In this document: positions 4,160 through 26,462 of the stretch, one piece after another
Layout of the letters: the number at the start of each line of letters is the position of its first letter
Numbering within the stretch: position 1 is the stretch's first letter
From: Micavibrio sp. UBA6929
Lineage (GTDB): Bacteria; Pseudomonadota; Alphaproteobacteria; Micavibrionales; Micavibrionaceae
DNA length: 64,000 bases
Assembly: GCA_002448815.1 (NCBI GenBank)
Contig: DKAJ01000003.1
Coordinates: 175,892 to 239,891 of the forward strand
Direction of reading: 5' to 3'
Program-made: the position numbers and the translations under genes
The notes under the pieces: generated by a model
The model's database searches: none
The model's input: only the letters and a program-made list of their open reading frames with translations
What the model was told of the DNA's origin: nothing

Positions 4160-4162
4160 TCT

Positions 4163-5773
4163 TTAGGCGTTTTCTCTTTCAAAATAAGTGATGTTGATAT
4201 CGCTGCCTGTAGCGGTGTTTTGACCGATAGCTGGTGTAGAAGAGCCGTTTCCGCGTTCATGTTGTAGGGGCAATGCGCCTGAACCATGTACTGTGTTTAT
4301 GGCGGTGCCGTCTAGGTCTTCGATTTTTATGCTGACATCTTTTGAGCTGCTGGTGTTGTTGACATGTATGTCGTGAAAGTAAAAGCCATTGAGGGCAGTT
4401 CCGATGATGGCATAGTTGCTGCAATCGCCATAAATGTGGTGACAGTAAGATTGGCTATTTATGGCTAAATTTGTGTCGGTAACAAGGCTCCAACTGCTTT
4501 CATCCCATTGCTTGAAAAAGTCGGCAATTTGCCCTGTGCAGTTTTCGGCTACGCAGTATTCAATTGAACAGTTTTCGATGACTGAGATATGCTCGAAAGC
4601 ATCTTCTGTACATTCGGTAACGTAGCAATACCGAAAGGCAGTGTTTTTCGCGCGCGCGGATTCTAAGCATTCATTGCCTGCGCCTGAGCCGCTTTGTTTG
4701 GTCATTTTTAAATATTGCACGGTTGTGTTTTCAATTTTAATCGTGCTGTCGGTATCATCGCTGATTAGGTAGATTAAGCGATATCCGCTGCCGGTGCTGG
4801 CGTTATGGTGGACGGTGCCGTGCTGTATGGTTGTGCCGTTTAGGGCGCTGAGTAAAATGGCTTCTTGCGCTGTATTTTGAATATCGAAATAGGTCACGAT
4901 TATGGATTTTTGCGCGGCGGGTGCGATGGTATCTGACATCATGTGCGCCATGCCGCCATTGATTTTTATGTGAGAGAAGGTAGATCCGTCCTGACATGCG
5001 ATGATTTGGAAGAGACTGTCGATTGTGACGGGCGTCATGCTTGCCTGATTTTCAATATGGGCGGCGTTGATTATTAAATCAGGGCTGTTAAAGAAAAAGA
5101 CGTCACAGCCTGATGCCCAATTTGTGCTGTTATTGCTAATATAAATATTTGTGAGTGTCAGTGAGCCTTGCGCAGTTGTCGCCGTGACATAGCCTGCGTA
5201 TGAATTGCACCCTGATAGTTCACATTCTTTTAGTGTGATATGTCCGCTTGTGTGTAAGAAGAGCTCTCCATTGGCGGCAGTGTTGTAAAACAAGCAGTGT
5301 TCGAATGTGATTGTGCCGCTTCCCCATGTGTCGAACCATAAATTTTGTGATGTCCAATCGTAAAAGCGGCAATTTATAAACTTCACGTGATAATTCGCAT
5401 CTGGATCATTAAAGCGCAGCGCCCAGTTGATGCTTTGCTGTCCATCATAATTAAGGTTTTCAATGATATAGGGGGCGGCCTGTGTGCCGCTGCTGGCTAG
5501 GTTTTGGATGTGCGTTTCGGATGTGATGTGCGTTTTTGATGCGGTGATCAGGATTGTGTCATCGATCAGGCCAGGTGTGATACCTGTTTCGATGCCTGCG
5601 ATCTCGCCAGCGGGGATGCCTGCTTGCGCCTTGATATTATGGGCGAGGCTTTGATTGCGATAGTGATAGGGCAGCGCGTCCTTTAACGGGAAGGGAGCGC
5701 GCAGGGAAAGTTGTAATTTATCATATGCAGGCACGCGCATAGGTGCCTGTGCACAATTGAGTGACAGTCTCAT
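4163..5773 (-). CDS. hypothetical right-handed parallel beta-helix (PbH1-like) protein, possible glycan-modifying or depolymerising enzyme
   Basis: 536-aa ORF with recurring ~22-25-aa segments rich in N/G/C/I/T (NCRFYD..., FEHCLFYN..., LKECELSGCN..., IENCSIEYCVAENC...), typical of pectate-lyase-fold repeats. It lies next to wzy/wzx. I see no obvious signal peptide. Confidence 0.5.
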   Translation of the reverse strand: MRLSLNCAQAPMRVPAYDKLQLSLRAPFPLKDALPYHYRNQSLAHNIKAQAGIPAGEIAGIETGITPGLIDDTILITASKTHITSETHIQNLASSGTQAAPYIIENLNYDGQQSINWALRFNDPDANYHVKFINCRFYDWTSQNLWFDTWGSGTITFEHCLFYNTAANGELFLHTSGHITLKECELSGCNSYAGYVTATTAQGSLTLTNIYISNNSTNWASGCDVFFFNSPDLIINAAHIENQASMTPVTIDSLFQIIACQDGSTFSHIKINGGMAHMMSDTIAPAAQKSIIVTYFDIQNTAQEAILLSALNGTTIQHGTVHHNASTGSGYRLIYLISDDTDSTIKIENTTVQYLKMTKQSGSGAGNECLESARAKNTAFRYCYVTECTEDAFEHISVIENCSIEYCVAENCTGQIADFFKQWDESSWSLVTDTNLAINSQSYCHHIYGDCSNYAIIGTALNGFYFHDIHVNNTSSSKDVSIKIEDLDGTAINTVHGSGALPLQHERGNGSSTPAIGQNTATGSDINITYFERENA

Positions 5774-5852
5774 GGTGTTTCCTTTGAAAAATATGCTAAT
5801 AATGGGAATATAGTTTAAGGAATATAATCCTAAATCGGTACGTTTGTCAAGG

Positions 5853-7157
5853 TTAAACTTCGTTGCGTACGGTCGGGGTCAGTAGTCTGCCCCATCTTGC
5901 CTGCGTGAGGAATTGGAAGATAAACAATGGAATGACAAAGAAAATGTAATTGATGAAAATCCCGTTATTGATGCCCGTAGGGGAAACAACATACAAAATC
6001 AGAATATAAGAAATATACGTAGAAAATGGATCGCGCGTCATTTGGCTGTATTTGGCTTGTATTTGACGCAGCAGCCATCCTGTTAAAAAACCACCAGTTA
6101 TCACGCCCAGCCATCCAAAACTGGAAAACCATTGGTTATAGGCAAATACAGGCCAGCCCCCGCGGCTTCCAGGGAGGAGGCTTTCTTTGAAATCACCGCC
6201 TGCGGTAATTTGTACGGGTTTATCTGGCCATAAAAAGCGCGGCACAACGCCGGCAAGACCGTTGGCAAAAGTTTCGCCAGTTTCTTCGTCGTGGAGTGTT
6301 CCAAGTGTGTCGATAAAGATGAGGTTTCCATCCATCACGTCGAAATGCAGCGCGCCGTAAAGATAGCTAATTGGGTCTTTGATGCTGGCTTCTTTCACGA
6401 AGATGATGCGTGTGAATTGTAATGATAATACTAGAACGACCAGTGCAAGGCAGGTCAGTGATATAAATTGCATGGGCTTTTTCGTGGCGCACACCGCATA
6501 GGCAATCGCCATGAAGGCCAGTGGCCAAATGATAAACCCTTTACCGCCCATGATGAACGAGAAAAACAGGTTCAGGATCAAGAGCACGGCAATAAGGCCA
6601 ATGAATTTTGTGTCAATGTGCGCGCCGCGCCTTTTGCGTACGATTAGATCGACGATGTAGGCGCTGCTGAGTAGGGTGGCGAATTGGATGAATTTTTTAA
6701 GGACGTTCAGCCCTTCGTAAAAATCAAGGTTACGCACGAGGTTAATGGCTTCGAAGATATCGCCTGTTTGTTGAATGGGTATCCATGCCACGATAAAGGC
6801 GCAAATCGTTAAGGTGATAATGCCTGCAAGGATAAGGAGATCTGATTTTGGGGCGCTGTAATCCGGGAAGAGGGATTGTCCAAACCTAACGCGGTTGAAA
6901 ACAATATATCCAAGATAGGTAAAAACCATAAAGACCATAAAGATCAACGCCATTTCCACCATGGCCGAGCTATGGCGGACATTGTCGAAAAAGGCGCTTT
7001 CGCCGCTGAACCCGAAGAGATAAAAAATGCTTGGCAGGTGACGATAAGCAACAAAACACAGGAAAAAACCCATGGCGTCAAAGGGGCGTTTGGCAACGAC
7101 CAAAAAGCCGAAACCAACAACACATATCACCGTAATAAAGAGCATAATCTCATGCAT
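5853..7157 (-). CDS. polytopic membrane protein, Wzy-like repeat-unit polymerase candidate
   Basis: 434 aa with at least 10 hydrophobic segments and a larger hydrophilic loop (DGNLIFIDTLGTLHDEETGETFANG...). The coding DNA is AT-rich. It sits directly downstream of a Wzx-like gene. Confidence 0.5.
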   Translation of the reverse strand: MHEIMLFITVICVVGFGFLVVAKRPFDAMGFFLCFVAYRHLPSIFYLFGFSGESAFFDNVRHSSAMVEMALIFMVFMVFTYLGYIVFNRVRFGQSLFPDYSAPKSDLLILAGIITLTICAFIVAWIPIQQTGDIFEAINLVRNLDFYEGLNVLKKFIQFATLLSSAYIVDLIVRKRRGAHIDTKFIGLIAVLLILNLFFSFIMGGKGFIIWPLAFMAIAYAVCATKKPMQFISLTCLALVVLVLSLQFTRIIFVKEASIKDPISYLYGALHFDVMDGNLIFIDTLGTLHDEETGETFANGLAGVVPRFLWPDKPVQITAGGDFKESLLPGSRGGWPVFAYNQWFSSFGWLGVITGGFLTGWLLRQIQAKYSQMTRDPFSTYISYILILYVVSPTGINNGIFINYIFFVIPLFIFQFLTQARWGRLLTPTVRNEV

Positions 7158-7172
7158 GGTGGCATGATTTTA

Positions 7173-8621
7173 TCAACTTACTTTGTTTTTTATAAGGCTA
7201 AAGAAGTGTAAGACGGACTTTATGCGGATAAAAATGTAGGCGCAGCAGATGGCGGCGCAAGCACTGGCGGCGATAAGGGCGCTGGTGTTTGTATGGGTGA
7301 AGGCAATGATGGTGCACGTAGTCAATATCAGGGTGAGTATTTCTGGCCATGCGATCAGTGCGTATGTGTTTTTCTTTTTGATGATAGTTGTGATGCTGAG
7401 CATGGTAATCAGGACGGCAATGTTGGTTGCATACGCCGCGCCAATGCCTTGATATTCTGGCACAAGATATATAAACCCGATCAGCAATGTGACAAAACTG
7501 ACAGTATGGGTGATAAGTGCCCATCCAGCGTGGCCAGCCATGGCGATAAAGCCGCCCGCATCACCAAAGGCCGCGCGAAGAAGGCTCGCGATCGAAAGTA
7601 AAATGAGGATATCGTATGTTTGCTGTCCATAGTCACCGAACTGCGCGAGGACAGGTTTGCTGAAGAGGATAAATGCGATAATGCCACATAATGTCGCGCA
7701 GAGCATCAGCGCCTGATTGGTGCGATACTCATCGATAAGCGCCGTGCGGTTGTTTTGTTTTAGGTGCGCGCGAATACGCGGGGTCAATAATTGCACCAGT
7801 GCATTTTTCGGGATAAGCAATAATTGACCGAAGCGCGATGCAATCGCAAAGTCAGCGGTCAGCGCCGTGCTAGCCAGTGCGCCGGATAGGACGATAACTA
7901 AATTGCGCGTAGATTTATTAACCAGTTGACCAAATCCTGATTGGGCGGCGTATTTGACATCCCACGCGGAAAAGACGCGCCAGTTCAGCGATGGGCGCAG
8001 CGGCGTTTGAATATACAGCGCTGCAAATGGTATTAAGTACGATGCAATAAAGGCGCATCCAACCCACGTGAACAGATGACTTGAATGCGTGATAAAGCCA
8101 AGGCTGGCTAGTGCGGCAATGCGCAGGATAGAAGGCAATATCTCATTATAGAGCGTGAGCTTATCAATATTTTGTAAGGCGCGATGCCAGCTGGTGAGTA
8201 CCATATTGATGGTGAAGGCGGGGATGAAACCTGCCATGGCGGCGAACCATAGGCTTAGATCGGGTTTGTTGAAAAGGCCTGCCAAAAAGGGCGCGCCGAC
8301 AAAACACAGTATGCCGATTGCTGCGCTGATGACGCATGATAGCCCCATGCCAGCGCGCGCAATAGGGTGGGGGATGTCTGTTTTGGCTGTGCTTTCATCG
8401 CTTGGAACGTGATATAAAATGCAACTTTGGAACAGGGTTGATAAGGTTGCGGCGATAATCTGGTACAGCGAAAAGACAATCATGAACGCGCCAAAGTCGT
8501 CTTTGCTCATGATCAGGTTGAGTTGCCAAATTGTAATGACGCCCGATACTGCCAAAAAGATTTTGGCAATGCCCGCAAAGGCCGTGGATTTGAAATAGAG
8601 GTTACGAAGGGCGCTGGGCAT
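7173..8621 (-). CDS. MOP-superfamily polysaccharide flippase (Wzx-like)
   Basis: 482 aa with about 12-14 TM segments. The N-terminus (LRNLYFKSTAFAGIAKIFLAVSGVIT...) resembles polysaccharide biosynthesis protein family members. Glycan-locus context. Confidence 0.7.
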   Translation of the reverse strand: MPSALRNLYFKSTAFAGIAKIFLAVSGVITIWQLNLIMSKDDFGAFMIVFSLYQIIAATLSTLFQSCILYHVPSDESTAKTDIPHPIARAGMGLSCVISAAIGILCFVGAPFLAGLFNKPDLSLWFAAMAGFIPAFTINMVLTSWHRALQNIDKLTLYNEILPSILRIAALASLGFITHSSHLFTWVGCAFIASYLIPFAALYIQTPLRPSLNWRVFSAWDVKYAAQSGFGQLVNKSTRNLVIVLSGALASTALTADFAIASRFGQLLLIPKNALVQLLTPRIRAHLKQNNRTALIDEYRTNQALMLCATLCGIIAFILFSKPVLAQFGDYGQQTYDILILLSIASLLRAAFGDAGGFIAMAGHAGWALITHTVSFVTLLIGFIYLVPEYQGIGAAYATNIAVLITMLSITTIIKKKNTYALIAWPEILTLILTTCTIIAFTHTNTSALIAASACAAICCAYIFIRIKSVLHFFSLIKNKVS

Positions 8622-8733
8622 GTTTTGTATGGAGCGGGTCTATGTGTCTGTTGTTCGGGGGCTTTATTCTTTTCCTATTTTAAAATACAATGGTTTCAAA
8701 TACTAACGGAAAATTTAGGCCTTATCATTTTAT

Positions 8734-9633
8734 ATGCCCAGCAGGGAATCTTCGCAATTTGTACCTGACTTTTTAATCGCTGGCGCGACGCGCTGCGGCA
8801 CGACCAGTTTGCATGAAGCGCTGGCGGCGCATTCTGGTGTGTGCGTTCCGCGTAAAAAGGAAGTGAAGTATTTTTATGACGATGCGCAGTACAAGCGCGG
8901 CGGTGCATATTACGCAACACATTTTTCGCATCGTGAAGACGGGCAAATTTGTGGCGAGGTTTGTCCGCTTTATTTCGAAAAAGGATTTGTCTTAACGCAA
9001 GATGGTCCTTCGTCATGGGTGCCAGAAGATGACTGCGCCGCGCGCATTCATCGTGACTATCCTGATGTGTCGTTGTTGTTTAGTTTGCGTGATCCTATTC
9101 AGCGCGCGCATTCGATTTTTTGGAAGAATAAATGGCAAGGACGTGAAACGGCAGATGACTTTGCGCAAGCCGTAGATGAAGAATTAATCGGTAAACGCAA
9201 GCCAGAGGAAACGCCGTTTTGCTTTGTGTGGCGTAACCGTTATCACATTCATCTTGAGCGCTGGTTAGAGCTATTCCCCAAGGAACAGTTACATGTTTTG
9301 CTGTTTGAGGAGTGGGTTAAAAATCCGCAAATTGCGGTTGATGCGTTTCAATCTGTTATGGATTTGCCTGCTGATCCGCAGTGGGGGGCGCACTGCTTTG
9401 TCAAAAGCAATGAGGGTCGCAAGTTATCCCATCCTGCGCTGCGATCTATTTCTGCGATCGGGGATAAAATACCACTAGTGCGCAGCTTTACCAGGCGCTT
9501 TTTAACGCAGCCCGGATATCCGCCGATTGATCCGCATGTATATGCGCGCCTGCAAGAAGAGTTTCGTGAGGATGTTACATTTTTAGAAACATTCTTGGGG
9601 CGCGGAATTGATGTCTGGTTGAAGGGCGTGTAG
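8734..9633 (+). CDS. PAPS-dependent sulfotransferase
   Basis: 5'-PSB-like loop FLIAGATRCGTTSL and 3'-PB-like FSLRDPIQRAHS. Confidence 0.8.
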   Translation: MPSRESSQFVPDFLIAGATRCGTTSLHEALAAHSGVCVPRKKEVKYFYDDAQYKRGGAYYATHFSHREDGQICGEVCPLYFEKGFVLTQDGPSSWVPEDDCAARIHRDYPDVSLLFSLRDPIQRAHSIFWKNKWQGRETADDFAQAVDEELIGKRKPEETPFCFVWRNRYHIHLERWLELFPKEQLHVLLFEEWVKNPQIAVDAFQSVMDLPADPQWGAHCFVKSNEGRKLSHPALRSISAIGDKIPLVRSFTRRFLTQPGYPPIDPHVYARLQEEFREDVTFLETFLGRGIDVWLKGV

Positions 9634-9728
9634 TATATGTATATTCGGCGTTTTTCTTGGCGCTGATTTCTTTGTTTTGCCATGCATTCGCCAGGGCATT
9701 TTCTTTGCCGCATTAAGGGAAAATAGTC

Positions 9729-10577
9729 GTGAAAGACCGTGTAGAGTTTTTTTATTTAGGCCCGCCCAAAAGTGCCTCAACATGGACGTATTTCTGCCTT
9801 GCAGATCATCCTGAAATTAATGCTTCCTCGCGCGGGGAACCTTGCTTTTTCGATCAGCATTTTCATGAAGGTTTATCATGGTTTGATGGGTTGTATGATG
9901 CAGGCCATGATGGGGTGCGCATGGATTGTACGCCTGGATATATTTATAATATCAACGCGCTAGAGCGCATTAAGAATTATAACCCTGATGCGAGGCTTGC
10001 CTTTGCTTTGCGTCATCCGGTTGAGCGCACATTTTCGGCGTATTGGCATGTGCGCAAGCGCCGTGATGTTGTGTGGACATTGGATGAGGTTTTTGACAAT
10101 CATGCGGCGTGGCGCCTATGGGTTGATAGCAGTATGATATCGGCGGGCGTTGAATATTTGCTAGCGAATTTTCCGCGTGAGAATATTCACTTTTTCATGT
10201 TTGACGATTTGAAGGCACAAGGGCTTGAGACTGTTCAAAATCTTTACCGCTTTATTGGTGTGGATGACGGGTTTGTTCCGCCGTCCTTGACAAAGCGCAT
10301 TAATGTGGCTGCGCCGCGGCCAACATTGCAGCACAAGGTGCGCCATAAACTGGCCGGTGTTTTGATGGGTGATAAGCTGCACCAGCGTGATGCGCAATTT
10401 AATGGGTTTGAACGCTGGCTGTCGGGTAAGGGCGAGTATCTTGAGGGGATGAAGCCTGAACTGCGCGCGGCGCTATTGCAGGCGTTTCTTCCTGAAATTG
10501 ATAAGTTAGAGCGTCTTTTAAACGTCGATTTATCACACTGGCGGGGGCATAATGATGCTGAAAAAACTGGCGCTTAG
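9729..10577 (+). CDS. PAPS-dependent sulfotransferase (second, divergent copy)
   Basis: [13 protein letters not shown] (5'-PSB-like) and [14 protein letters not shown] (3'-PB-like). GTG start preceded by AAGGGA. Confidence 0.75.
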
Positions 10578-11049
10578 GCTTTTTTATATTGTGCGTCGTG
10601 GCTCGCGTATATTGCGCTCAGCCAAGTGGCATATGCTTGTTGCACAATGCGGTAAGCGCTTTTGGGTGTTTGGACGCATTCGTATGGACATGCCTGAAAA
10701 GATTTATATCGGTGATCGCGTTAGTTTGAACGATGGCGTGTTTTTAATTGGCCGTGATGAGATACGCCTTGGTCATGGCGTGACATTGTCGCCGCATGTA
10801 TTGGTGACCTCGGCCAGTATGGATGTGCATCAAGGCTTGCCGCCATATCCGCGTGCCACAGGGCCGGTTGTGCTGGAAGACGGCGTTTGGGTTGGCGCGG
10901 GGGCGATTGTTTTACCAGGTGTCACGATAGGCAGAAATGCCGTTATCGCCGCAGGGTCTGTGGTCAATAAAGACGTGCCAGCAGGGCATCTTTATGGCGG
11001 TGTTCCCGCAAAAATGATTAAGAAAATTCACGATAAGGACGCGGCATAG
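10552..11049 (+). CDS. left-handed beta-helix (hexapeptide-repeat) O-acetyltransferase, WcaF/LacA-like
   Basis: Hexapeptide repeats [33 protein letters not shown] followed by GGVPAK. It overlaps the upstream sulfotransferase by 26 nt. Confidence 0.8.
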
Positions 11050-11050
11050 T

Positions 11051-12121
11051 ATGGGCGTAAAACTGGATCATGTGCGTGACTTACATGGTGATCCGGCCTC
11101 GCCGATGAAGTGGCCAAATTCTGCCGCGGTGTTTAATGATGGCCGCATTGCGGTTGCGGATAGTGGCCATAACCGCGCCACGGTTTTAACGCCTGACGGT
11201 GATATGATCTGGCAGGGCGGGCAGCAAGGATTTTCAACGGGTGACCTGCGCGAGCCGATCTATGTCTTTGTTACGCCAGATCAATATTTATTGGTTTCTG
11301 ATTGGCACAATCATCGCTTTTGCGTGTATCGTCCAGACTTATCCGTGTCTCATGTTTTGGGGCATCTTGGGCGTTTGTCGCCCGTGCGCGGCGTGCGTGA
11401 TGGCGTGCGTTTATGTTTATCGTTTTTGAGTAATTTGGCCATCGAATATGTGGGGGCGCCTTATTATTTTACGCCCTCTAAAATGAAAAATGGCCGCCCT
11501 GAAAAGCCTAAACGATCACTGAAAATGTTGATCTGGGGTATGTGGCATTATGCGCGCAACTGGCCAGAATTAAAGGCGATTTTTACAGATACGCGCACCG
11601 CAATGATGAAACCTAATGGCGCCGTTTTTCGTGATGGTCATTTGATTGTTGCACAAAAAGGACATCAATGTTTATCCGAATATAAGGTCGCGAATGACTG
11701 GCGTGATTTGGACTTGGTGCGTCATGTTAAAGACTTTAATGGCGGCGATACATTTTTGCGTCTTTGTAATATGAGCCAAGATCCGCAAGACCGCATTTAT
11801 GTGTGTGATCAAAAACGATGGCGCATTGTCGTGTTTGATAAGGACTTGAATTATCACTCAGAAATAACGTTCGCGGATGATGGGCGCTATCCCGATGGGC
11901 CGTTTAGCTGCGCTGTGTTAAATGCGGATTACATTGCTGTGGCGATTGGTTTTAAGGTCGAGGTGCGCGCCCTGGACGGCGGGCAGGTTGTTGCCGAGTT
12001 GGATGGCTTTGGCGAAACGCACGGCATAACGTGGGATGAGGCGCGTCAATATTTGTATTTTGTTGATCGCAGTGAATCGTGCTTGCGTCAAATCAAAGTG
12101 ACCTTTGGGGAGGAGCGCTAA
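11051..12121 (+). CDS. NHL-repeat-like beta-propeller protein, function unknown
   Basis: Recurrent NHL-type motifs: VADSGHNRATVL, VSDWHNHRFCVY, VCDQKRWRIVVFD and VDRSESCLRQI. No signal peptide seen. Confidence 0.55.
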   Translation: MGVKLDHVRDLHGDPASPMKWPNSAAVFNDGRIAVADSGHNRATVLTPDGDMIWQGGQQGFSTGDLREPIYVFVTPDQYLLVSDWHNHRFCVYRPDLSVSHVLGHLGRLSPVRGVRDGVRLCLSFLSNLAIEYVGAPYYFTPSKMKNGRPEKPKRSLKMLIWGMWHYARNWPELKAIFTDTRTAMMKPNGAVFRDGHLIVAQKGHQCLSEYKVANDWRDLDLVRHVKDFNGGDTFLRLCNMSQDPQDRIYVCDQKRWRIVVFDKDLNYHSEITFADDGRYPDGPFSCAVLNADYIAVAIGFKVEVRALDGGQVVAELDGFGETHGITWDEARQYLYFVDRSESCLRQIKVTFGEER

Positions 12122-13980
12122 TGTGCGGGATCTTTGGTCAGCTTAAATTAGGTGGTTTTTCCCAAGAAGAGGCGCGCCGCGCACTCAACAGTCTTGCACA
12201 CCGTGGCCCTGATCAGTGGAGTGACTGGGACGATGAGCATGTTTATTGCGGTCATCGCCGCCTGAGTATCATGGATCTTAGCGAAGCAGGCCGTCAGCCG
12301 ATGATTGGCCATGGCGTGATTTTGACGGTCAATGGTGAGATTTGGAATTTTATGGAACTGCGCGAAGAGCTGATTGCGCAAGGGTATAAATTTAATAGCC
12401 AGTCCGATAGCGAAGTTCTTCTTCACGGGTATCATGCGTGGGGTTGGGATCGTCTTCTTGAGCGTATTGATGGCATGTATGCTTTCAGTATCTATGATAC
12501 GAATTTGGGTAAATTATGCATTGCGCGTGATCGCTTTGGTATTAAACCGCTTTATTACGCGGCGGGAAATTTTGGGTTTGGATATGCGTCTGAGGTGAAA
12601 GCGCTTTTTGAATGGCGCGATGAATTGCGCTGTTTTTCCTTGAACGGGGTGCGTGATTGGCTCCTGTACAGAGGGGGGCAATCAGGCCTGACGCCCTATT
12701 ATCAAATTGTAAAATTACTGCCGGGACATTCGATCTGCGTTGATGTGCGAAGTGGTGATGTTGACGTGCGAAAATACTATGACGTGGTTGATCATATTGG
12801 CGATAAAAAGTCGGATCCAAATGATTTGCCTGACGTTTTTGAGGAGGCCGTTTCACGCAGGTTGATGGCAGATGTTCCCGTTGGATTGCAGCTTAGCGGC
12901 GGGGTGGATTCTTCGTTGGTTGGCCATGCAATGCATAAATTATACGATACGGATCAGATAAATTCTTTTTCTGTTGGTTTTGATGCCGAAAATGAGGCGC
13001 ATTTATCGGAAGAACCGTTTGCGCGCTATGTCGCCGATAAATATGGTTTTACGCATCATCAGTATAATATTAACCGCAAGATGATCGCCGAAAATTTTGA
13101 GCATGTCTTGTGGCTTGCGGATGGGATGCTGGATTATCCTAATACGGTGCCGATTTATTTGTTAAGCCGCTATGCCAAGCAAAATGTTACGGTTCAGTTG
13201 ACTGGCGAGGGCGCTGATGAGCTGTTTGCAGGGTATACCAAGTTTAAGAAGATGGCTGGTTTGTCGTCTGGTGGTTCCCTTGAGAAAATGATGCCAGATG
13301 GTGTGATTGATGCGATTGGGAATATGGATGCACGTGTGGGACGCATGTTGCATTTGCGTAAACACTACACAAAACAAAACGCCGTGATCCTTAATAGCTT
13401 GAACAGTTATATATCTGCATCCACAGTTGAGCAAATGTTTGGTCCTCATGAGGGGCATTTGTTGCGCGGCGATACGTGCGCGGCGCTGAAAGAATTTTCA
13501 TTTTCGCGGCAATTGATTTTGGCTGATCATAAGACATATCTTGTCGCCGTTTTAGAGCGTCAGGATAAATCGTCGATGGGCGCTGCGATCGAAAGTCGCG
13601 TTCCATTTTTGGATCGTAATTTGATCGAATGGGCGATGAATTTAGATGAAGATATTTTGTTCGGCGCAGATGAAACGAAAAAGATTTTGAAGGATTATGC
13701 AGCCGATATTTTTTCACATGATTTTGCGTACCGTAAAAAAGTTGGTTTTCCTTTGCCGCTTAAAAACTGGATGGAAAGTGATGCTGGTCTGAAGCCGTTT
13801 CGGGATAAAATTTATCAAAGCGATTTTTTGCTGAGTGAATATTTTATGCATTATAAGAAAAAATCATTTGATCATATTTTGCTGCATTACGGGGATAGTG
13901 AAAGCCAGTGGGTTGAGTATTTCATGATGGTCTTGCGAAGTGCACAGGATGTGTTTGGTATTCGTGAGGTGCGCCCATGA
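12121..13980 (+). CDS. glutamine-hydrolysing asparagine synthase family amidotransferase (EPS/O-antigen type, WbpS-like)
   Basis: MCGIFG N-terminus carries the Cys2 Ntn nucleophile. SGGVDSS PP-loop. The ATG at 12121 overlaps the upstream stop (TAATG), whereas the ORF-track start at 12079 lies inside the previous gene. Confidence 0.85.
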   Translation: MCGIFGQLKLGGFSQEEARRALNSLAHRGPDQWSDWDDEHVYCGHRRLSIMDLSEAGRQPMIGHGVILTVNGEIWNFMELREELIAQGYKFNSQSDSEVLLHGYHAWGWDRLLERIDGMYAFSIYDTNLGKLCIARDRFGIKPLYYAAGNFGFGYASEVKALFEWRDELRCFSLNGVRDWLLYRGGQSGLTPYYQIVKLLPGHSICVDVRSGDVDVRKYYDVVDHIGDKKSDPNDLPDVFEEAVSRRLMADVPVGLQLSGGVDSSLVGHAMHKLYDTDQINSFSVGFDAENEAHLSEEPFARYVADKYGFTHHQYNINRKMIAENFEHVLWLADGMLDYPNTVPIYLLSRYAKQNVTVQLTGEGADELFAGYTKFKKMAGLSSGGSLEKMMPDGVIDAIGNMDARVGRMLHLRKHYTKQNAVILNSLNSYISASTVEQMFGPHEGHLLRGDTCAALKEFSFSRQLILADHKTYLVAVLERQDKSSMGAAIESRVPFLDRNLIEWAMNLDEDILFGADETKKILKDYAADIFSHDFAYRKKVGFPLPLKNWMESDAGLKPFRDKIYQSDFLLSEYFMHYKKKSFDHILLHYGDSESQWVEYFMMVLRSAQDVFGIREVRP

Positions 13981-15212
13981 GCAACGTGTCCCGCGCGGAT
14001 ATTTCGTTCTTTTTACACCTTGGGTACTTCCCGGGTTATGCGGATGCGTTGCCACTGGATTACTCGGGGGTTGATCCATCGCGTTATGTGGGGTTGGATG
14101 AGCAAGCCCTGATGGATGAGGGGATGCGCCTGTTTCGTAAGGCGATCGAAGATGACTTTGTCACTGGCGCGCGTCATGTTGTGCCGATCAGCGGCGGTTT
14201 GGATAGTCGTGCGATTTTATGCGCGCTTCGTGAGTTTACGGATGCGGGCAATATTGAGACATATACGTTTGGCACGCCTGGCAGTTATGACTATGAGTTC
14301 GGCGCACAGGTTGCGCGCGCGGCGAGTGTGCGGCATCAGGCCATTGATTTAACGCAGGTATCTTGGCAGGCGGATGAGCTTTTGGAAAATGCGCGGCGTA
14401 ATGATGCCCAAACATTTTTATTTCATCATGTGCCGATTTCCCTGCTGGAGCCTTATAGCGATGCGTTGATATGGTCGGGGTATATTGGGGATGCGGTTGT
14501 CGGCGGTCATCTAAAGGCCGAGCCAGCACTGTCTTTGGAGCAAGCCAAGGGGCGCTATTTGAAAAAACGCGCCGAGGTTAAGTCGATGGTGATGCATGAC
14601 GGCGATGTTGGCGGTATGTCGGCGCATGTTGGTGGGGGCTTTGCCTCGCCAGATGTGTTGAGCTTCGATGAGCAGGTCTTGTTTGCAGAGGTTGGTAAAT
14701 TGGTTGCACCGCATGTTTTGATTAAGGGTTTTTCTTATAAAACGCCGTTTATTAATAATGATTTTTGGCGATGGGGCCTGAGTATTGATGGGCGCTGGCG
14801 CCGTGATCGTAATTTATTTATTGCGATGATGCGCCGTGCGTATCCCGATGTGTTTGATGTGCCTAATAAACCGAATTTTGGTTTGTCTTATAGTGCGTCA
14901 CGATCACAAGTGTTTGCGGCGCGTTTAAAAAACAAAATACTACATAAGGGCATTGAGGTGATGCCATTTATCAATTGGCCATCATCGCCGAATACGAATT
15001 TTATCGATTTTTCAAAATTGGTACGTGAGCGCGAAGATTTGAAAAATATGTCATATGCATTTTTGCAGGCATTAAAGGCGCGCGATATTGTGACGTGGTT
15101 GGATATTGATGTGATTTGGGAAACGCATTTTTCGCGGCGTAAAAATTGCGGTGATGCGATTGCATTATTGGTGTCGTTAGAAGCAAATTTACAGGTCAAA
15201 GAAGAGGGGTGA
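13977..15212 (+). CDS. asparagine-synthase synthetase-domain-only paralogue (PP-loop ATP pyrophosphatase), no glutaminase domain
   Basis: VVPISGGLDSRAIL PP-loop about 70 aa from the N-terminus, with no Cys2. ATGA overlap with the preceding AsnB-like gene. Confidence 0.6.
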   Translation: MSNVSRADISFFLHLGYFPGYADALPLDYSGVDPSRYVGLDEQALMDEGMRLFRKAIEDDFVTGARHVVPISGGLDSRAILCALREFTDAGNIETYTFGTPGSYDYEFGAQVARAASVRHQAIDLTQVSWQADELLENARRNDAQTFLFHHVPISLLEPYSDALIWSGYIGDAVVGGHLKAEPALSLEQAKGRYLKKRAEVKSMVMHDGDVGGMSAHVGGGFASPDVLSFDEQVLFAEVGKLVAPHVLIKGFSYKTPFINNDFWRWGLSIDGRWRRDRNLFIAMMRRAYPDVFDVPNKPNFGLSYSASRSQVFAARLKNKILHKGIEVMPFINWPSSPNTNFIDFSKLVREREDLKNMSYAFLQALKARDIVTWLDIDVIWETHFSRRKNCGDAIALLVSLEANLQVKEEG

Positions 15213-15215
15213 AAA

Positions 15216-16301
15216 ATGCGTCTTTTTTATGCCTCAGGATCCTTGATTCCATCTGATCGTGCGAACAGTGTTCATGTCATGAAAATGTGTCAGGCCTTTG
15301 CAAAAAATGGATGTGATGTCACGTTGTTTGCCAAACGTGGTGGGTGTGAAAATCCATTTGATTTTTACGGCGTTGATTCGATTTTTTCGTATGTTTTTTC
15401 GCCTTTCAAAAACGGCATTTTTCGTCTTGTTGATCAGGCCTATCAATTTTTAAAATTGCCAAAACCTGATATTTGTTATGGGCGAGACCCTTGGCTTTTG
15501 GCATGGATGTCTTTGTTTTGTCCGGTGGTTTTAGAGCTTCATGAGGTTCCATCTGGGTTGCAGGGCAGGGTGGTGAAATGGCTGTTTTTGAAAAATAAAA
15601 CAAAACTTATCGTATGTATTTCAAAGTCTTTGCTATCAGATGTTTTGGCCTTTTTGGGCTCCTCAGATGAGGCGCGTTTTGTTGTTGCGCATGATGGCGC
15701 AGATATTCATGAAAACGTAACGGTTGGTATTTTAAAGGACGTTAAGCCTGCTGTTGGTTACGTTGGGTCGCTTCTTCCCGGGAAGGGCGCGGAGGTTTTG
15801 GTTGATCTTGCCGCGCGTATGCCAGAGATTTCGTTTCACATTGTTGGCGGTTCTCGGCAGCAAATTGATGAATTGAGGATACGTGAAAAAGGTGGTGATG
15901 TCCACTATCATGGGCATGTTTCTCATGGTGATTTGAGTCAGTATATTTCTGGTTTTGATGTTGTTGTTGCACCTTATCAAAAAGATATGTCGCTGCGCAC
16001 TGGTGTGAATATTTCACGATGGATTTCACCCTTAAAATTGTTTGAATATATGGCCGCGAAAAAGCCAATTATTTGTAGTGATCTTTCTGTGCTGCGTGAG
16101 GTGATGGAGCATGAAAAAAATTGCCTTTTGGTGGCGCCAGATAATTTGGATGAGTGGCAAAATGCGATCACACGTTTGGTGAATGATGAAGCGTTAAAAG
16201 TGCGCTTGTCAGATCAGGCGCTAGCCGATTTGAAAGAGCATTATACATGGGATAAACGTGCGAAAAATATTCTTGGTGCTGTGACAAAGGCATTGATGTG
16301 A
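15216..16301 (+). CDS. GT4-family (GT-B) glycosyltransferase
   Basis: 361 aa. The C-terminal half carries an EX7E-like region: PLKLFEYMAAKKPIICSDLSVLREVMEHEKN. Confidence 0.8.
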   Translation: MRLFYASGSLIPSDRANSVHVMKMCQAFAKNGCDVTLFAKRGGCENPFDFYGVDSIFSYVFSPFKNGIFRLVDQAYQFLKLPKPDICYGRDPWLLAWMSLFCPVVLELHEVPSGLQGRVVKWLFLKNKTKLIVCISKSLLSDVLAFLGSSDEARFVVAHDGADIHENVTVGILKDVKPAVGYVGSLLPGKGAEVLVDLAARMPEISFHIVGGSRQQIDELRIREKGGDVHYHGHVSHGDLSQYISGFDVVVAPYQKDMSLRTGVNISRWISPLKLFEYMAAKKPIICSDLSVLREVMEHEKNCLLVAPDNLDEWQNAITRLVNDEALKVRLSDQALADLKEHYTWDKRAKNILGAVTKALM

Positions 16302-16315
16302 TTTACACTTGATTC

Positions 16316-17626
16316 ATGATTCGCATTTCTCGTGCACTTATTCTTACATTGTTGGCTTCTTCTTATATGGCAATGCCCGCGCATGCGCAGGACGCAAAGC
16401 CCGCTTGGGAGCGTTTTGGCTTTAAGGATGACTCGACCAACAAAGGTAAATTGCGCGCCGTTGATCCGGGTGTATTGACGACGTCGCCTTTCCATTGGCG
16501 AGGTTTTAAGATTTATGCGCGGATGGATACCGAGGAAGAATATAACGATAATATTTATGCGACCGAGGATGATGCGGACGCGGATTTTATTACGCGGTTT
16601 AAGCCTAGCGCGACTGTTGTCAAAGATGTTGGCCGTCATCAGTTTACTGTCAGTGCTAAAGGCGAGATGGAACGCTATGCGGATTCGCCCGATGAAAATA
16701 CCATTGATGGTGAGGCGCAATTTGGCGGCGTTTTAGAAGCGTATCGCAGTTTTGTTATTCCATTTAATGTGACGCACGGCGTCTATCATACAGACCGCGC
16801 TAAGGTGCGCGGCACCAGTTTTGGCGCGCTGACGCGCAAGCCTGTTGAGTATAGCGAGACCACCGCCGAAGCGGGATTTCGTTATCAGCCTAATCGTTTA
16901 GGGTTGTCGGTTATGGGACGCGCAGGGCAGACCCGTTATAAAAATGGGGTGTCGAACTCTGGCGCGGAGGCTATCTATAAAGATGGTGATTTTGACCAGA
17001 ATGAAATTGATGCGCGCCTGTCTTATGCGACGCAAACTTCTTTCGAGCCTTATGTGCAGGTTAAGTGGACTGACCAGAATATGAAGAACCGCGAATATGT
17101 TGCGGGTAGCGGTTTTACTGGTAATGACCGCAGTAATAAGAGCTTTTTAGCGCGCCTTGGATCGACCTTTGATTATAAGGGGCTGGTGACTGGTTTTTTA
17201 AGTATTGGCCGTGAAAATCGCACATACGATCAAAGTAACATTGATGATGCATCAAGCTTGTCTTTTGCAGGTGCGGTGCAGTTGATTTTAAATCCAAAAT
17301 GGAAATTAAATTTGGATGCTGGCGTTTCTACGGCAGAGGATACATTGATTAAGGCAGGCATGAAAAAGCGTGGCTTTGGCATTGGTTTGGATTATGAATT
17401 GCAGCAAGACTTGTTTGCAACGCTTGGCGTGAATTATAACGAGGATGAATTTACCAGCCTTGTCCGTACAGATGAAACGTGGGAGCTTGGCGGTGGTATG
17501 CGCTATGTGATTAGTCCGCGCCTGTCTTTGAGCGCAGAATACTTAAACCGTATGCGCGATAGTGATGCGGCAGATGCGGATTTGGATAATCATATGGTTA
17601 TCTTGCGTCTGAGTGGCGCCCTTTAA
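16316..17626 (+). CDS. outer-membrane beta-barrel protein associated with the glycan locus (BBP2/OmpL-like)
   Basis: Signal peptide MIRISRALILTLLASSYMAMPAHA/QD. EEYNDNIYAT motif. Alternating amphipathic strands rich in Y/G/R run to the C-terminus. Confidence 0.55.
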   Translation: MIRISRALILTLLASSYMAMPAHAQDAKPAWERFGFKDDSTNKGKLRAVDPGVLTTSPFHWRGFKIYARMDTEEEYNDNIYATEDDADADFITRFKPSATVVKDVGRHQFTVSAKGEMERYADSPDENTIDGEAQFGGVLEAYRSFVIPFNVTHGVYHTDRAKVRGTSFGALTRKPVEYSETTAEAGFRYQPNRLGLSVMGRAGQTRYKNGVSNSGAEAIYKDGDFDQNEIDARLSYATQTSFEPYVQVKWTDQNMKNREYVAGSGFTGNDRSNKSFLARLGSTFDYKGLVTGFLSIGRENRTYDQSNIDDASSLSFAGAVQLILNPKWKLNLDAGVSTAEDTLIKAGMKKRGFGIGLDYELQQDLFATLGVNYNEDEFTSLVRTDETWELGGGMRYVISPRLSLSAEYLNRMRDSDAADADLDNHMVILRLSGAL

Positions 17627-18357
17627 TTCTTTATCATATCAATTTGAATATGCCATGTGATGCGACCATTATGAGCTGCGTCGCAATAGGTGTATGCATG
17701 CTTGATTTGTGAATGCGTTAGGGGCGTGTAATCGGGGTGAGGGGTTGCCGCGCCTGTTGTGCGCATTGATCTTAGGAAGTTGAGCGTCGATCCATATTCT
17801 TGCGGAATAGTGATGTGTGATATTTTGCCGCGTGTTGATTGGAAGGGGTGCAACCCACTTTGATATCCACAATGTGCGAGGCTATTGCGCCATTCTGGGA
17901 AGCAGTTTTCGGCCGGACGACTGGTGAGGATTGTTCCCGAAGGCGCGAGGATGCTCTGCCACGCGTCATAGCATCCCTGAATATCGTCCAGCCATTGCAC
18001 GGTCATATTGCTGATGATTAGGTCAAAGGTTTGACCTTGCAGCGGGGTAATGTCCTCCCCGTTAAGGTGCATTGTTTCGATATGTGAAGTGTTGCTTATT
18101 TTACGCTGCACTTCGTGGAGCATTTCTGGCGTGACATCGGTTGCGGTGATGTGGGCGCTAGGGAAGCGCGCCGATAATAGATGCGTTAGATTGCCTGTGC
18201 CGCAGCCAATTTCAAGGATGCGTTTTGGCGTTGTGCCTTTTGGCAGTGCGCTGAGTAACTCTTGCGCGACCGCCTGTTGCAACGTGCTTTGTTCGCCGTA
18301 TTGTTTGGCGAAACGACCAAAGTTTGTGATGATTTTGCGCGCGTGTGTGTCTGGCAT
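17623..18357 (-). CDS. bioC: malonyl-[ACP] O-methyltransferase
   Basis: FGRFAKQYGEQSTLQQAVAQELL and the SAM motif ILEIGCGTGNLT. I chose the start at MPDT (18357), 2 nt after the upstream stop. The longer ORF-track N-terminus overlaps the upstream gene. Confidence 0.7.
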   Translation of the reverse strand: MPDTHARKIITNFGRFAKQYGEQSTLQQAVAQELLSALPKGTTPKRILEIGCGTGNLTHLLSARFPSAHITATDVTPEMLHEVQRKISNTSHIETMHLNGEDITPLQGQTFDLIISNMTVQWLDDIQGCYDAWQSILAPSGTILTSRPAENCFPEWRNSLAHCGYQSGLHPFQSTRGKISHITIPQEYGSTLNFLRSMRTTGAATPHPDYTPLTHSQIKHAYTYCDAAHNGRITWHIQIDMIKN

Positions 18358-18359
18358 AG

Positions 18360-19013: not shown

Positions 19014-19067
19014 GCTGTTATTTCTAGGGCTTTCTGGTTATAAAATCCATATCATCTGATAAAAAAT

Positions 19068-19111: not shown

Positions 19112-19186
19112 AATTAACAAGATATTAATGGTGCAAATGCACTGGTTAATTAAAGCACTGAAATAACGTGCAGGTAGAGGTGTAAA

Positions 19187-24273: not shown

Positions 24274-25110
24274 TTATTCGGCGTCGTCTTCGAGGAACCA
24301 GTTTTCGCTAGCGGCGATAAACTCGGGGTTGAGCATATCGCGCTCGGTATGGCCGTATGTGAAGGCCGTGCCATCAGTTTGCACCAGGCATCCGCCCGCA
24401 GCATTAAGGACAGCGTGCGCGGCGGCGGTGTCCCATTCGCATGTCGGGCCAAGGCGCGGGTAAAGGTCGGCTTTGCCTTCTGCGATGGCGCAGATTTTCA
24501 GAGAGCTTCCACGGCGCATGAGCTTATTGATCTTGAATGACTCAAGCAATTTTTCCATGCGCTCATTATCGCCGTGCGATTTGCTGGCTACAACGGTTAG
24601 GCCGTTTTTAGGGGCGCTGCGCACGTGAATGGATTTGTCTTGATCTGTTTCTTCGCTCCAGCGGATGGCGCTGCCTGCGGCGTGACCTGCATATAAAACG
24701 CCTGTTACAGGAACAAAGACAACGCCCATTACAGGCGTGTCGCCTTTGATAAGGGCGATATTTACGGTGAAATCTGATCCGCCTTGGATGAATTCTTTTG
24801 TGCCGTCTAGTGGATCAACTAGCCAGAAATATTCTCCTTGAGAAAGGTTAGGCATTTTGCCGGCTTCTTTGGATTCTTCACCGACCATTGGGATGTCTGG
24901 TGTGATGCTGGCTAGTTCTTTGGCGATGTATTCTTCGGCCTTTTGATCGGCCAGACTAACGGGGGATCCATCACCTTTTGTTTCGACGTTCAGGTTGCCC
25001 ATCTCGTAATAATCAAGGGTAATGTCGCCAGCCTGCACGGCAATGCGGCGCACCATGTTGCATAATGCGGGCAGGTTCGCGAGGAGCTTTGCTGATAAAG
25101 GGTGTCCCAT
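24274..25110 (-). CDS. cysQ: 3'(2'),5'-bisphosphate nucleotidase (PAP phosphatase)
   Basis: WLVDPLDGTKEFI and FTVNIALI, in the IMPase-fold CysQ pattern. The start codon shares one nucleotide with the ugd stop (TAATG). Confidence 0.85.
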   Translation of the reverse strand: MGHPLSAKLLANLPALCNMVRRIAVQAGDITLDYYEMGNLNVETKGDGSPVSLADQKAEEYIAKELASITPDIPMVGEESKEAGKMPNLSQGEYFWLVDPLDGTKEFIQGGSDFTVNIALIKGDTPVMGVVFVPVTGVLYAGHAAGSAIRWSEETDQDKSIHVRSAPKNGLTVVASKSHGDNERMEKLLESFKINKLMRRGSSLKICAIAEGKADLYPRLGPTCEWDTAAAHAVLNAAGGCLVQTDGTAFTYGHTERDMLNPEFIAASENWFLEDDAE

Positions 25111-26462
25111 TATTGTGCAACTTCTTTTAAGGCTGGCGTGCCTTGGTTTGCTTCAACCGCTGGACGGCCGATAGACACGTAATCAAAGCCGCGCGCGGCC
25201 ATGTCTTTGATTTTATAGATATTGCGCATGTCGATGATACGCTTTTCCGCCAGCAGGTCTTCTACGCGGTCAAGGTCAAGGGCGCGAAATTCGTTCCACT
25301 CGGTAATGATGGCAAGGGCATCGGCGCCTTCGATGGCTTCGTATGAATCCTTCGCCCATGTCACGTCAGAAAGGACTTTTGCCGCATTATCCATAGCAGC
25401 AGGATCAAAGGCCGAGATTTGCGCGCCAGCGGCTTGCAGGTGCGGGATGATTTGCAGGCTTGGTGCCTCGCGGATGTCATCTGTGCCAGGTTTAAATGAA
25501 ATGCCAAGTACGGCAATTTTTTTGCCTTTCACATCGCCGCCACATGTTTTCACAACAAGGTCAGCCATTTCCTGATGGCGCAGCGTGTTGATTTCGACAA
25601 CTTTTTCGACGATGCGTTGCGGCGCGCCGAATGTTTCGCCAATTTGCGTTAGGGCAAGAGTGTCCTTGGGGAAGCATGATCCGCCGTAGCCTGGGCCAGC
25701 GTGCAGGAATTTGCTGCCGATGCGGCCATCTAGGCCCATGCCGCGCGCAACTTCTTGGACGTTTGCGCCTGTTTTTTCGCACAGGTTTGCAATTTCGTTG
25801 ATGAAGGTGATCTTTGTCGCCAAGAAGGCATTGGCCGCATATTTGATTGTTTCAGATGTTTCCGGCGATGTGATGACCATCGGTGTTTCATTGATGTAAA
25901 GCGGGCGGTAAAGCGCTTTTAGCACATCTGTCGCGCGTTTAGAGCTTGATCCGATGACGACGCGGTCTGGGCGCATAAAGTCATTGATTGCGGCGCCTTC
26001 ACGCAGAAATTCTGGGTTTGAACAAATATCAAAATCACCATCAGGGCGTTCTTCGCGGACGATTTTTTCGACTTCGCGCGCTGTGCCGACAGGGACGGTC
26101 GATTTGGTCACGATCACTGTATAGCCATCCATGACGCGGGCGATTTCGCGCGCTGCTTGATAGACGTACGTCATATCCGCGTGACCGTCCTCTTCGCGTG
26201 GCGGTGTGCCAACAGCAATAAAGACTGCATCTGCGCCTTTGACGGCGTCTTCTAGGTTGGTTGTGAAGGAAAGGCGGCCTGCTTCGACCTGTTTTTTGAC
26301 CAATGTTTTTAGGCCGGGTTCGTAAATTGGGATTTCGCCGTTTTCTAGGCAGTCGATTTTGCTTTTGTCCTTATCGACGCAGATGACGTTGATGCCGAAT
26401 TCGGCAAAACATGTTCCAGAGACCAAGCCTACATAGCCTGTTCCAACCATTGCAATGCGCAT
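25110..26462 (-). CDS. ugd: UDP-glucose 6-dehydrogenase
   Basis: MRIAMVGTGYVGLVSGTCFAEFG Rossmann N-terminus and the GGSCFPKD catalytic-Cys motif. 450 aa. Confidence 0.9.
   Translation of the reverse strand: MRIAMVGTGYVGLVSGTCFAEFGINVICVDKDKSKIDCLENGEIPIYEPGLKTLVKKQVEAGRLSFTTNLEDAVKGADAVFIAVGTPPREEDGHADMTYVYQAAREIARVMDGYTVIVTKSTVPVGTAREVEKIVREERPDGDFDICSNPEFLREGAAINDFMRPDRVVIGSSSKRATDVLKALYRPLYINETPMVITSPETSETIKYAANAFLATKITFINEIANLCEKTGANVQEVARGMGLDGRIGSKFLHAGPGYGGSCFPKDTLALTQIGETFGAPQRIVEKVVEINTLRHQEMADLVVKTCGGDVKGKKIAVLGISFKPGTDDIREAPSLQIIPHLQAAGAQISAFDPAAMDNAAKVLSDVTWAKDSYEAIEGADALAIITEWNEFRALDLDRVEDLLAEKRIIDMRNIYKIKDMAARGFDYVSIGRPAVEANQGTPALKEVAQ

Follow-up and report, generated by a model that had tools for sequence, protein, structure and literature searches.

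We analysed a 64,000-nucleotide stretch of DNA from Micavibrio sp. UBA6929 (contig DKAJ01000003.1), hereafter the window, in which positions 4163-17626 hold a compact gene cluster that an initial annotation had assigned to a sulfated surface glycan. That annotation counted 13 genes in the interval, a number that was not upheld, as open reading frame (ORF) calling gave 11, and every function it had named was recovered in its place. The 11 genes are arranged as a minus-strand unit of wzx-like, wzy and beta-helix genes and a divergent plus-strand tailoring operon, separated by an intergenic region of 112 bp (8622..8733, from the gene coordinates). The plus-strand genes encode, in this order, two sulfotransferases (ST1 and ST2), a left-handed beta-helix hexapeptide (LbH) acyltransferase, an NHL propeller, a full-length AsnB-family amidotransferase (AsnB), its synthetase-only paralogue (AsnBs), a GT4 glycosyltransferase and a BBP2_2 outer-membrane barrel. 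A gap of 95 bp lies between ST1 and ST2, and from ST2 to the barrel the genes overlap or follow one another at very short distances, with the LbH start overlapping the ST2 end and the AsnBs start overlapping the AsnB stop codon. The locus is flanked upstream by panC and an RTX serralysin-like protease gene, and downstream by bioC, a bioH-like gene and a gene for a 1667-aa RTX/VWA protein. The sequence of the window was 100% identical in contigs of Tara Oceans assemblies and in the metagenome-assembled genome (MAG) GCA_002716465.1, and the same arrangement recurred in several independent assemblies, once on a contig of 1 Mb.

Starting from homologues of NHL and AsnBs, we found five further contigs, from metagenomes or MAGs, with the same core, consisting of one or more sulfotransferases, variable LbH or methyltransferase genes, NHL, AsnB, AsnBs, GT4 and BBP2_2, and in some cassettes also a Sulfotransfer_2 gene or a second GT4. 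Upstream of these related cores we found Wzx, a Wzy_C-like membrane protein, or both. Core proteins were 28-55% identical in four lineages (L085, L089, L090 and L091), one of which is a MAG labelled "uncultured Micavibrio sp.", and the four distant cassettes sit in different chromosomal settings, beside dciA and mutY, yidC and rnpA, or hflX and mazG. L088 is a closer relative, with 58-79% identity; it has its cassette at the same site as the window, with the panC and RTX flank kept, and carries an additional TylF-type methyltransferase gene between its two sulfotransferase genes. Related cassettes contain one to four sulfotransferases from at least four clades, and methyltransferases are swapped in; such exchange of tailoring genes around a conserved core is typical of serotype-variable surface-glycan loci. 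As the core recurs in independent lineages at different sites, it is a functional cassette and its clustering is not due to chance. Thus, this is a real conserved locus for the assembly and tailoring of a surface glycan.

The assembly side of the locus lies on the minus strand. The Wzx-like flippase (7173..8621) has 482 aa and 12 predicted transmembrane (TM) segments and was assigned by homology: it shares 34% identity (E 8e-54) with a Micavibrio-MAG protein of the same cassette position in which PF01943/PF13440 are matched. It is also 32-39% identical to the gene product at this position in L085, L089 and L091, and the L085 copy matches both PF01943 and PF13440. The adjacent gene (5853..7157, minus strand) encodes a multi-TM protein of 434 aa assigned by TIGR04370 to the Wzy-type repeat-unit polymerases. 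A crude hydropathy scan gave 7 TM segments for this protein and 10 for each of its orthologues L088_435 and L092_430 by the same method. Orthologues were found only in the close relatives L088 and L092, each time adjoining the beta-helix gene; Wzy proteins are notoriously divergent.

Both sulfotransferases passed their family models. ST1 (8734..9633, plus strand) scored 40.8 and ST2 (9729..10577, plus strand) 47.2 against Pfam Sulfotransfer_3 (cut-off 27), and the two scored 31.9 and 28.5, respectively, against Sulfotransfer_1 (cut-off 22). They are as divergent from each other as had been proposed, with about 20% identity, and ST2 belongs to a second clade. Among proteins of the Protein Data Bank (PDB), ST1, which resembles heparan sulfate 3-O-sulfotransferases, matched the bacterial sulfotransferase 3rnl (1e-16) and HS3ST1 (1e-12), and ST2 matched 3rnl (3.5e-15) and HS3ST3A (9e-12). 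The 5'-PSB and 3'-PB motifs reported for both enzymes are present and conserved in the orthologues, reading AGATRCGTT and RDPIQRAHS in ST1 and GPPKSAST and RHPVERTFS in ST2. The LbH protein (10552..11049, plus strand; Pfam Hexapep 50.4) resembles WcaF, maltose O-acetyltransferase and HpsU, every score being under the respective cut-off, and is probably a sugar O-acetyltransferase. A possible helper for sulfation is CysQ, a 3'(2'),5'-bisphosphate nucleotidase that removes PAP (24274..25110, minus strand; TIGR01331 270 vs 228.8). Its gene lies 6.6 kb from the locus and adjoins the UDP-glucose 6-dehydrogenase gene ugd, and CysQ might serve the locus from outside; near the other cassettes, cysQ was seen as a weak partial match in L089 only.

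AsnB (12121..13980, plus strand) is a full-length Cys2 glutamine-dependent amidotransferase of 619 aa. Its true start is at 12121, giving the N-terminus MCGIFG, and both the N-terminal Cys glutaminase domain (GATase_7 133) and the Asn_synthase domain (233) are present. It scored 419 against TIGR01536 (cut-off 267) and stayed under the cut-off of the WbpS/WbqG-type equivalog model TIGR03108 (336 vs 817). By analogy with such enzymes, AsnB probably converts the carboxylate of a sugar acid to a carboxamide. Chemistry of the NAGGN, lasso-peptide or beta-lactam type was also considered for the AsnB pair and rejected, with scores under cut-off and the wrong gene context.

AsnBs (13977..15212, plus strand) is a 411-aa paralogue of the PP-loop ATP pyrophosphatase type (Asn_synthase 32 vs 21) with an invariant SGGLDS PP-loop and no glutaminase domain. 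In profile searches it matched synthetase domains only, those of AsnB, CarA and beta-lactam synthetase, and it is probably a carboxylate-adenylating, amide-forming tailoring enzyme. In a profile alignment, AsnBs residues 166-172 (WSGYIGD) fall on LSGEGSD of E. coli AsnB, placing a Tyr at the position of Glu348. Beta-lactam synthetase and carbapenam synthetase presumably have a Tyr at the same position and use a substrate amine instead of ammonia, and this residue hints that the nucleophile of AsnBs may likewise be an amine rather than ammonia. We found no assigned function for AsnBs. The family is large, with 208 word-indexed matches and 322 confirmed genome loci in bacteria and archaea. Across phyla its members sit in standard Wzx/Wzy loci together with Wzz, tyrosine kinase, Bac_transf, GT2, GT4, Wzx and Wzy_C genes. 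Most AsnBs loci have no full-length AsnB, and AsnBs is therefore not dependent on AsnB.

The gene directly following AsnBs encodes a GT4 (GT-B) glycosyltransferase (15216..16301, plus strand; Glyco_trans_1_4 78.6, Glyco_transf_4 40.3). Full-length homologues of this GT4, with 22-39% identity (most of them 32-39%), were present in 38 of 79 AsnBs loci, and in 22 loci the GT4 gene was directly downstream of AsnBs on the same strand. Clustering of all ORFs of the 79 loci gave no third universal partner. Thus, AsnBs-GT4 is the sole strongly conserved partnership in AsnBs loci, and it extends across many phyla. As a separate observation, genes for PF14397 "Sugar-transfer associated ATP-grasp" proteins were found in 10 AsnBs loci (between L006 and L084), often in several copies (for example L021 6387-7544), and this is a further candidate amide-forming tailoring family.

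The NHL gene (11051..12121, plus strand; Pfam NHL 48.4 vs 20) encodes a predicted cytoplasmic six-bladed propeller with a helical insert. The AlphaFold2 model had a pLDDT of 92.7, with helices at residues 114-179 forming an insert of about 70 residues. Exhaustive HMMER searches gave a family of about 25 full-length cluster representatives. In L085, L088-L091, L096 and L055 the NHL gene is directly upstream of AsnB or AsnBs, and in L076 it is about 1.2 kb upstream. NHL adjoined AsnBs wherever the context could be read, and the GT-NHL-AsnBs trio was also seen in an unrelated contig and a Polaribacter MAG; an Anaerolineae MAG was another of these contexts. The NHL protein is thus a recurrent partner of AsnBs. 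At the sequence level, the TRIM71 NHL domain matched the protein with an E value of 1e-23, and Foldseek searches with the model gave a TMt of about 0.8 to the NHL domains of Thin and TRIM2, with PAL at rank 16. As a guide to function this search was set aside, because it returned generic NHL domains, did not prefer PAL or Vgb lyase and gave no functional lead. The family alignment also showed three invariant histidines (H86, H225 and H324) on different blades, along with Tyr and Arg residues that are likewise invariant.

None of the tailoring proteins had a predicted signal peptide or TM segment, and tailoring is therefore placed in the cytoplasm, as PAPS-dependent chemistry requires. The last gene of the operon (16316..17626, plus strand) encodes a BBP2_2 outer-membrane beta-barrel (PF10082, 163 bits) with a signal peptide predicted to be cleaved at AHA|QD. 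The barrel scored under the cut-offs of TIGR03016, the PEP-CTERM-associated outer-membrane protein model (61.5 < 90.85), and of EpsL (35.7 < 275). Its gene is conserved in L085, L089, L090 and L091, and the barrel probably acts at an outer-membrane export or anchoring step.

The first gene of the region (4163..5773, minus strand) encodes a 536-aa protein that the initial annotation had described as a Cys-rich beta-helix. We counted 15 Cys residues, and the AlphaFold2 model (pLDDT 92.7) is indeed a right-handed beta-helix. Pfam Beta_helix scored 24.5 bits, slightly under the cut-off of 25.9, no CAZy-type family was assigned and phmmer against the PDB gave no real matches. Foldseek matches to tailspikes, exopolysaccharide (EPS) depolymerases, PL6 lyases and AlgG were weak (TM 0.2-0.5); they indicate the fold class only, and with such values a lyase cannot be told from a hydrolase or an epimerase, so Foldseek was rejected as a test of enzyme class. 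The family is rare: we found 18 homologues, in which E368, E390, D391, E394, D418 and H446 are invariant, a suggestive set of acidic and His residues. Close homologues adjoin Wzy beside panC. Two others, with 28-29% identity over more than 90% of the length, lie in phage tail modules of the phage or prophage contigs L087 (1-17200) and L093 (1-12000), where a tape-measure gene and, immediately before them, a Pect-lyase_RHGA_epim gene precede them, and the L087 module has a diversity-generating retroelement (bAvd and reverse transcriptase) nearby. A tblastn search against GenBank phages gave a single weak match (21.6% identity). The window protein thus shares the right-handed parallel beta-helix with phage tailspikes and EPS depolymerases, AlgG and PL6 proteins and has homologues in phage tail modules, whereas its gene, unlike those of the phage tailspikes and depolymerases, is chromosomal and stands beside wzy. 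It is probably a tailspike-like enzyme that binds or depolymerises the product of the locus.

The initial annotation had also listed precursor and support genes elsewhere in the window, and cysQ, ugd, the epimerase gene, gmd-fcl-manC and the WecA-like gene were all present at the level of their families. The last of these (56165..57265, plus strand; Glycos_transf_4 126.8 vs 27) encodes a polyprenyl-phosphate HexNAc-1-phosphate transferase of the WecA/WbpL family. Its best model was WecA TIGR02380 (188.5, under the cut-off of 326) and MraY scored only 56; it is a candidate initiator that could act for the locus. The earlier remark that the locus lacks Wza/Wzc, an initiating transferase and a second glycosyltransferase was correct as an observation, since none is in the locus, and among the scanned window ORFs of at least about 150 aa we found no Wza, Wzc, Wzz or second glycosyltransferase. 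Their absence is not an anomaly, because a WecA-family gene lies elsewhere in the window, which is usual for WecA-primed Wzx/Wzy systems. An O-antigen-like product needs neither Wza nor Wzc, and one GT4 together with WecA suffices for a disaccharide repeat. So the interpretation of a coherent assembly and tailoring unit with sulfotransferases, an acetyltransferase and AsnB-type enzymes was retained, and the emphasis on missing parts was overstated.

Taking together the family assignments, the operon structure, the predicted locations and the conservation of the cassette, we consider it fairly probable that the locus makes a Wzx/Wzy-dependent surface glycan, O-antigen- or capsule-like, with a short repeat that is heavily tailored in the cytoplasm. 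Which sugars are the acceptors, in what order the steps run, whether the product is O-antigen or capsule and what each enzyme catalyses are inferences, as follows. The WecA-family enzyme from elsewhere in the window would prime undecaprenyl phosphate with HexNAc-phosphate, and the sole GT4 would add the next sugar. The soluble enzymes would then modify the lipid-linked unit or the nucleotide-sugar precursors: ST1 and ST2 would transfer sulfate from PAPS, the LbH enzyme would O-acetylate, and AsnB would convert a sugar carboxylate to a carboxamide with nitrogen from glutamine. AsnBs with the NHL protein may carry out a second ATP-dependent acyl-adenylate and amide-forming step without a glutaminase of its own. 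Wzx would flip the unit and Wzy polymerise it, the BBP2_2 barrel would work at the outer membrane, and the tailspike-like beta-helix protein might bind or trim the polymer.

Several observations weigh against this pathway. The source sequence consists of metagenome assemblies only. The Wzx-like protein itself matched no Pfam or NCBIfam HMM, even at E<=5, and Wzy cleared TIGR04370 only marginally (41.7 bits vs a cut-off of 40). The locus has one glycosyltransferase only, the GT4, and WaaL, Wzz, OPX and PCP were not found in the 64 kb window (ORFs of at least about 150 aa); neither were the PAPS-synthesis genes cysDN and cysC. In the PSB loop of ST1 an Arg replaces the usual Lys, and it is kept in 5 of 5 orthologues. 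We take tyrosylprotein sulfotransferase to have Arg at this position as well, and the Arg of ST1 was therefore not read as inactivating. The beta-helix protein has no predicted signal peptide or TM segment, which leaves its path to a periplasmic or surface polymer unexplained. Finally, a uronic-acid substrate was unsupported by gene context, as a UDP-sugar dehydrogenase lay within 10 kb in just 11 of 55 AsnBs loci.

This last point bears on a rival explanation, in which the product is the uronic-acid- and fucose-containing polymer of the initial annotation, glycosaminoglycan (GAG)-like and made by a non-standard pathway that truly has no initiating transferase and no Wza/Wzc export. Its ingredients are in the window. 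Ugd (25110..26462, minus strand), with three UDPG_MGDP_dh domains, scored 472 vs 190 against TIGR03026 and 558 bits as a TuaD-like protein, and it is a possible source of UDP-GlcA for the locus. A short-chain dehydrogenase/reductase (SDR) epimerase (46527..47537, minus strand; Pfam Epimerase) matched two PDB entries or groups, 5u4q with 467 bits and, with 151 bits, 6zl6/6zld, the latter a UDP-GlcA 4-epimerase; it is a probable UDP-glucuronate 4-epimerase and may likewise feed the locus. A uronic-acid link is plausible, because the window has ugd and the epimerase gene, and because uronic acids are the substrates that AsnB enzymes of the WbpS type amidate. The same explanation gains from both sulfotransferases being closest to heparan sulfate 3-O-sulfotransferases among solved structures, and from the related cassettes, L090 excepted, having at least as many sulfotransferases as glycosyltransferases. 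On the fucose side, gmd, fcl and a short ManC-like NTP transferase gene (48555-51385) are 31 kb from the locus among housekeeping genes, and no fucosyltransferase was found in the glycan locus; the one argument for fucose is co-residence in the 64 kb window, which may suggest a link. The non-standard pathway is further opposed by the WecA-family initiator in the window, and by the fact that the absence of Wza/Wzc is normal for O-antigen-type assembly. A UDP-sugar dehydrogenase seldom occurs with AsnBs, and ugd and gmd were absent within 10 kb of all related cassettes. Dehydrogenase co-occurrence as support for uronic acid was rejected in its own right, as it showed no enrichment with the GT4 pair (7/32 vs 4/23). 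Taken together, this explanation appears unlikely.

An equally doubtful alternative to the Wzx/Wzy-dependent polymer is that the product is a short sulfated oligosaccharide, flipped by Wzx and ligated to lipopolysaccharide (LPS) core, lipid or protein with no polymer being formed. It would fit cassettes with one or two glycosyltransferases, and the marginal pass of the window Wzy points the same way. The Wzy type varies by lineage, the membrane proteins of L085 and L090 match Wzy_C under threshold, and the Wzy_C domain is common to ligases and polymerases. In L091, the region examined had no polymerase-like gene. Against these points, a TIGR04370-type polymerase gene is co-transcribed with wzx in the window and its close relatives, the tailspike-like beta-helix protein beside Wzy suggests a polymeric substrate, and the divergence of Wzy makes a missing Wzy in some cassettes weak evidence. 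Far less credible is a non-glycan acceptor (for example a lipid, a small metabolite or the secreted RTX proteins encoded nearby) for the sulfotransferases and the AsnB-type enzymes, whose genes would then adjoin the glycan genes by accident. In its favour, a sequence does not reveal which acceptor an enzyme uses, beta-lactam and lasso-peptide synthesis also involve relatives of AsnB, and the cassette has RTX genes at its flanks in the window and in L088, L089 and L091. Against it, the tight operon with GT4 and outer-membrane barrel, divergent from wzx-wzy, is kept across lineages, AsnBs homologues occur in unmistakable polysaccharide loci of many phyla, and no precursor peptide or lipid-synthesis genes are in the locus.

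The initial annotation did not recognise the gene combination as a described pathway, and this holds in part. WecA-primed Wzx/Wzy O-antigen and capsule loci share with the window the Wzx-like, Wzy and GT-B proteins, cytoplasmic tailoring and an initiator gene outside the locus; unlike typical loci of this type, the window has a single glycosyltransferase, no Wzz, WaaL, Wza or Wzc in 64 kb, and BBP2_2 and NHL genes in the unit. The AsnB-type amidotransferase (TIGR03108), the barrel (TIGR03016/EpsL) and an stp-type GT4 recall the EPS loci of the PEP-CTERM/exosortase (XrtA) type, and these models are the nearest specific matches of the window proteins, but here the AsnB, barrel and GT4 are all under cut-offs (stp3 57 < 442), and neither exosortase, EpsB-type sugar transferase, PCP nor OPX was found in the window. 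Sulfated Wzx/Wzy products and AsnB-type uronamides are already described. For AsnB-type uronamide formation in glycan loci there is genetic evidence from PGN_1234, WbqG and H. pullorum WbpS (PMC7468200, PMC6025236). Like these, the window AsnB has the Cys2 glutaminase and Asn_synthase domains at full length and is encoded within a glycan locus; it is not their orthologue (TIGR03108, 336 < 817), and, unlike them, it is translationally coupled to a glutaminase-less paralogue and has NHL upstream.

The synechan (xss) cluster of Synechocystis PCC 6803 is a Wzx/Wzy-type locus for a sulfated EPS with two sulfotransferases of different subfamilies, and its outer-membrane export gene also lies outside the cluster (PMC8205485). 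Thus the window resembles it in type and in the number of sulfotransferases. By contrast, only the xss cluster has eight glycosyltransferases, the PCP XssK and dedicated regulators, and it has no AsnB, AsnBs, NHL, LbH or BBP2_2. A comparison of the proteins of the two loci gave ST1-XssA as the sole similar pair (23% identity, E 2e-20). Loci for sulfated capsular polysaccharides in two marine Gram-negative bacteria, Vibrio sp. KMM 8419 and Cobetia marina (PMC11641403, PMC11766843), likewise contain sulfotransferase genes; the Vibrio KMM 8419 capsule depends on an ABC transporter (Kps) and its locus has its own cysDNC copy, neither of which was seen in the window. We did not find the NHL/AsnBs/GT4 combination described. 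So the kind of pathway is known, and what is newly noted here is the AsnBs-GT4 pair, the NHL-AsnBs partnership and the beta-helix homologues in phage tail modules.

The main value of the locus lies in this uncharacterised AsnBs/GT4/NHL module and in the phage-related beta-helix protein. In polysaccharide loci, AsnBs and its GT4 partner range from Bacillus through Bacteroidota and Planctomycetota to the archaea, and once the function of AsnBs is solved in this locus, hundreds of others could be annotated. That the host beta-helix protein is homologous to phage tail proteins gives a direct lead on how phages recognise their hosts in this uncultured marine lineage. Few bacterial sulfated glycans have been characterised beyond cyanobacteria and a handful of marine isolates, and compact cassettes in which as many as four sulfotransferases accompany just one or two glycosyltransferases offer a tractable supply of carbohydrate sulfotransferases with which GAG-like polymers could be engineered. 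A more speculative combination, to which we give a low probability, is that the locus represents an undescribed route of marine Micavibrio-like alphaproteobacteria to a polysulfated short-repeat GAG-like glycan, in which AsnBs and NHL perform a novel amidation of sugar carboxylates and the glycan serves as an RTX anchor and a phage receptor. If true, AsnBs and NHL would attach, for example, an amine or amino acid instead of ammonia to the sugar carboxylate, and the polyanionic glycan would be both a Ca2+-mediated anchor for RTX proteins and the receptor for phages with a homologous beta-helix protein.

RTX (HemolysinCabind) genes, some of them for serralysin-like metalloproteases, flank the cassette in the window (653-4159 and 19187-24190), and in relatives they flank or interrupt it (L088 11627-14671, L091 2517-4904 and L089 19107-20252). 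A Ca2+-mediated link of secreted RTX proteins to a polyanionic glycan is conceivable.

In a promoter and terminator scan of 4000-19200, the counts were no better than in shuffled sequence. A near-consensus sigma-70-like site was seen at 5821-5850 on the minus strand (TTGACA, an 18-nt spacer and TATATT; 11/12 matches), within the 79 bp that separate wzy from the beta-helix gene. It may give the beta-helix gene a promoter of its own, although the scan overall did not rise above chance. Rfam and tRNA scans across the window gave no matches. In 2 kb bins of 1-64000, GC skew was positive throughout (0.08-0.38) and AT skew was negative in nearly all; the strand bias was strong and uniform, with no compositional island at the glycan locus. 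A SapC-family gene (26663-27451), which adjoins ugd and cysQ, and a TetR-regulated AcrAB/OEP-type efflux operon (29441-36055) seem unrelated to the glycan locus. The two halves of MnmC are separate ORFs overlapping by 10 bp, at 54318-55109 (Methyltransf_30) and 55100-56149 (FAD-dependent DAO), and mnmC is either split by nature here or interrupted by a frameshift.

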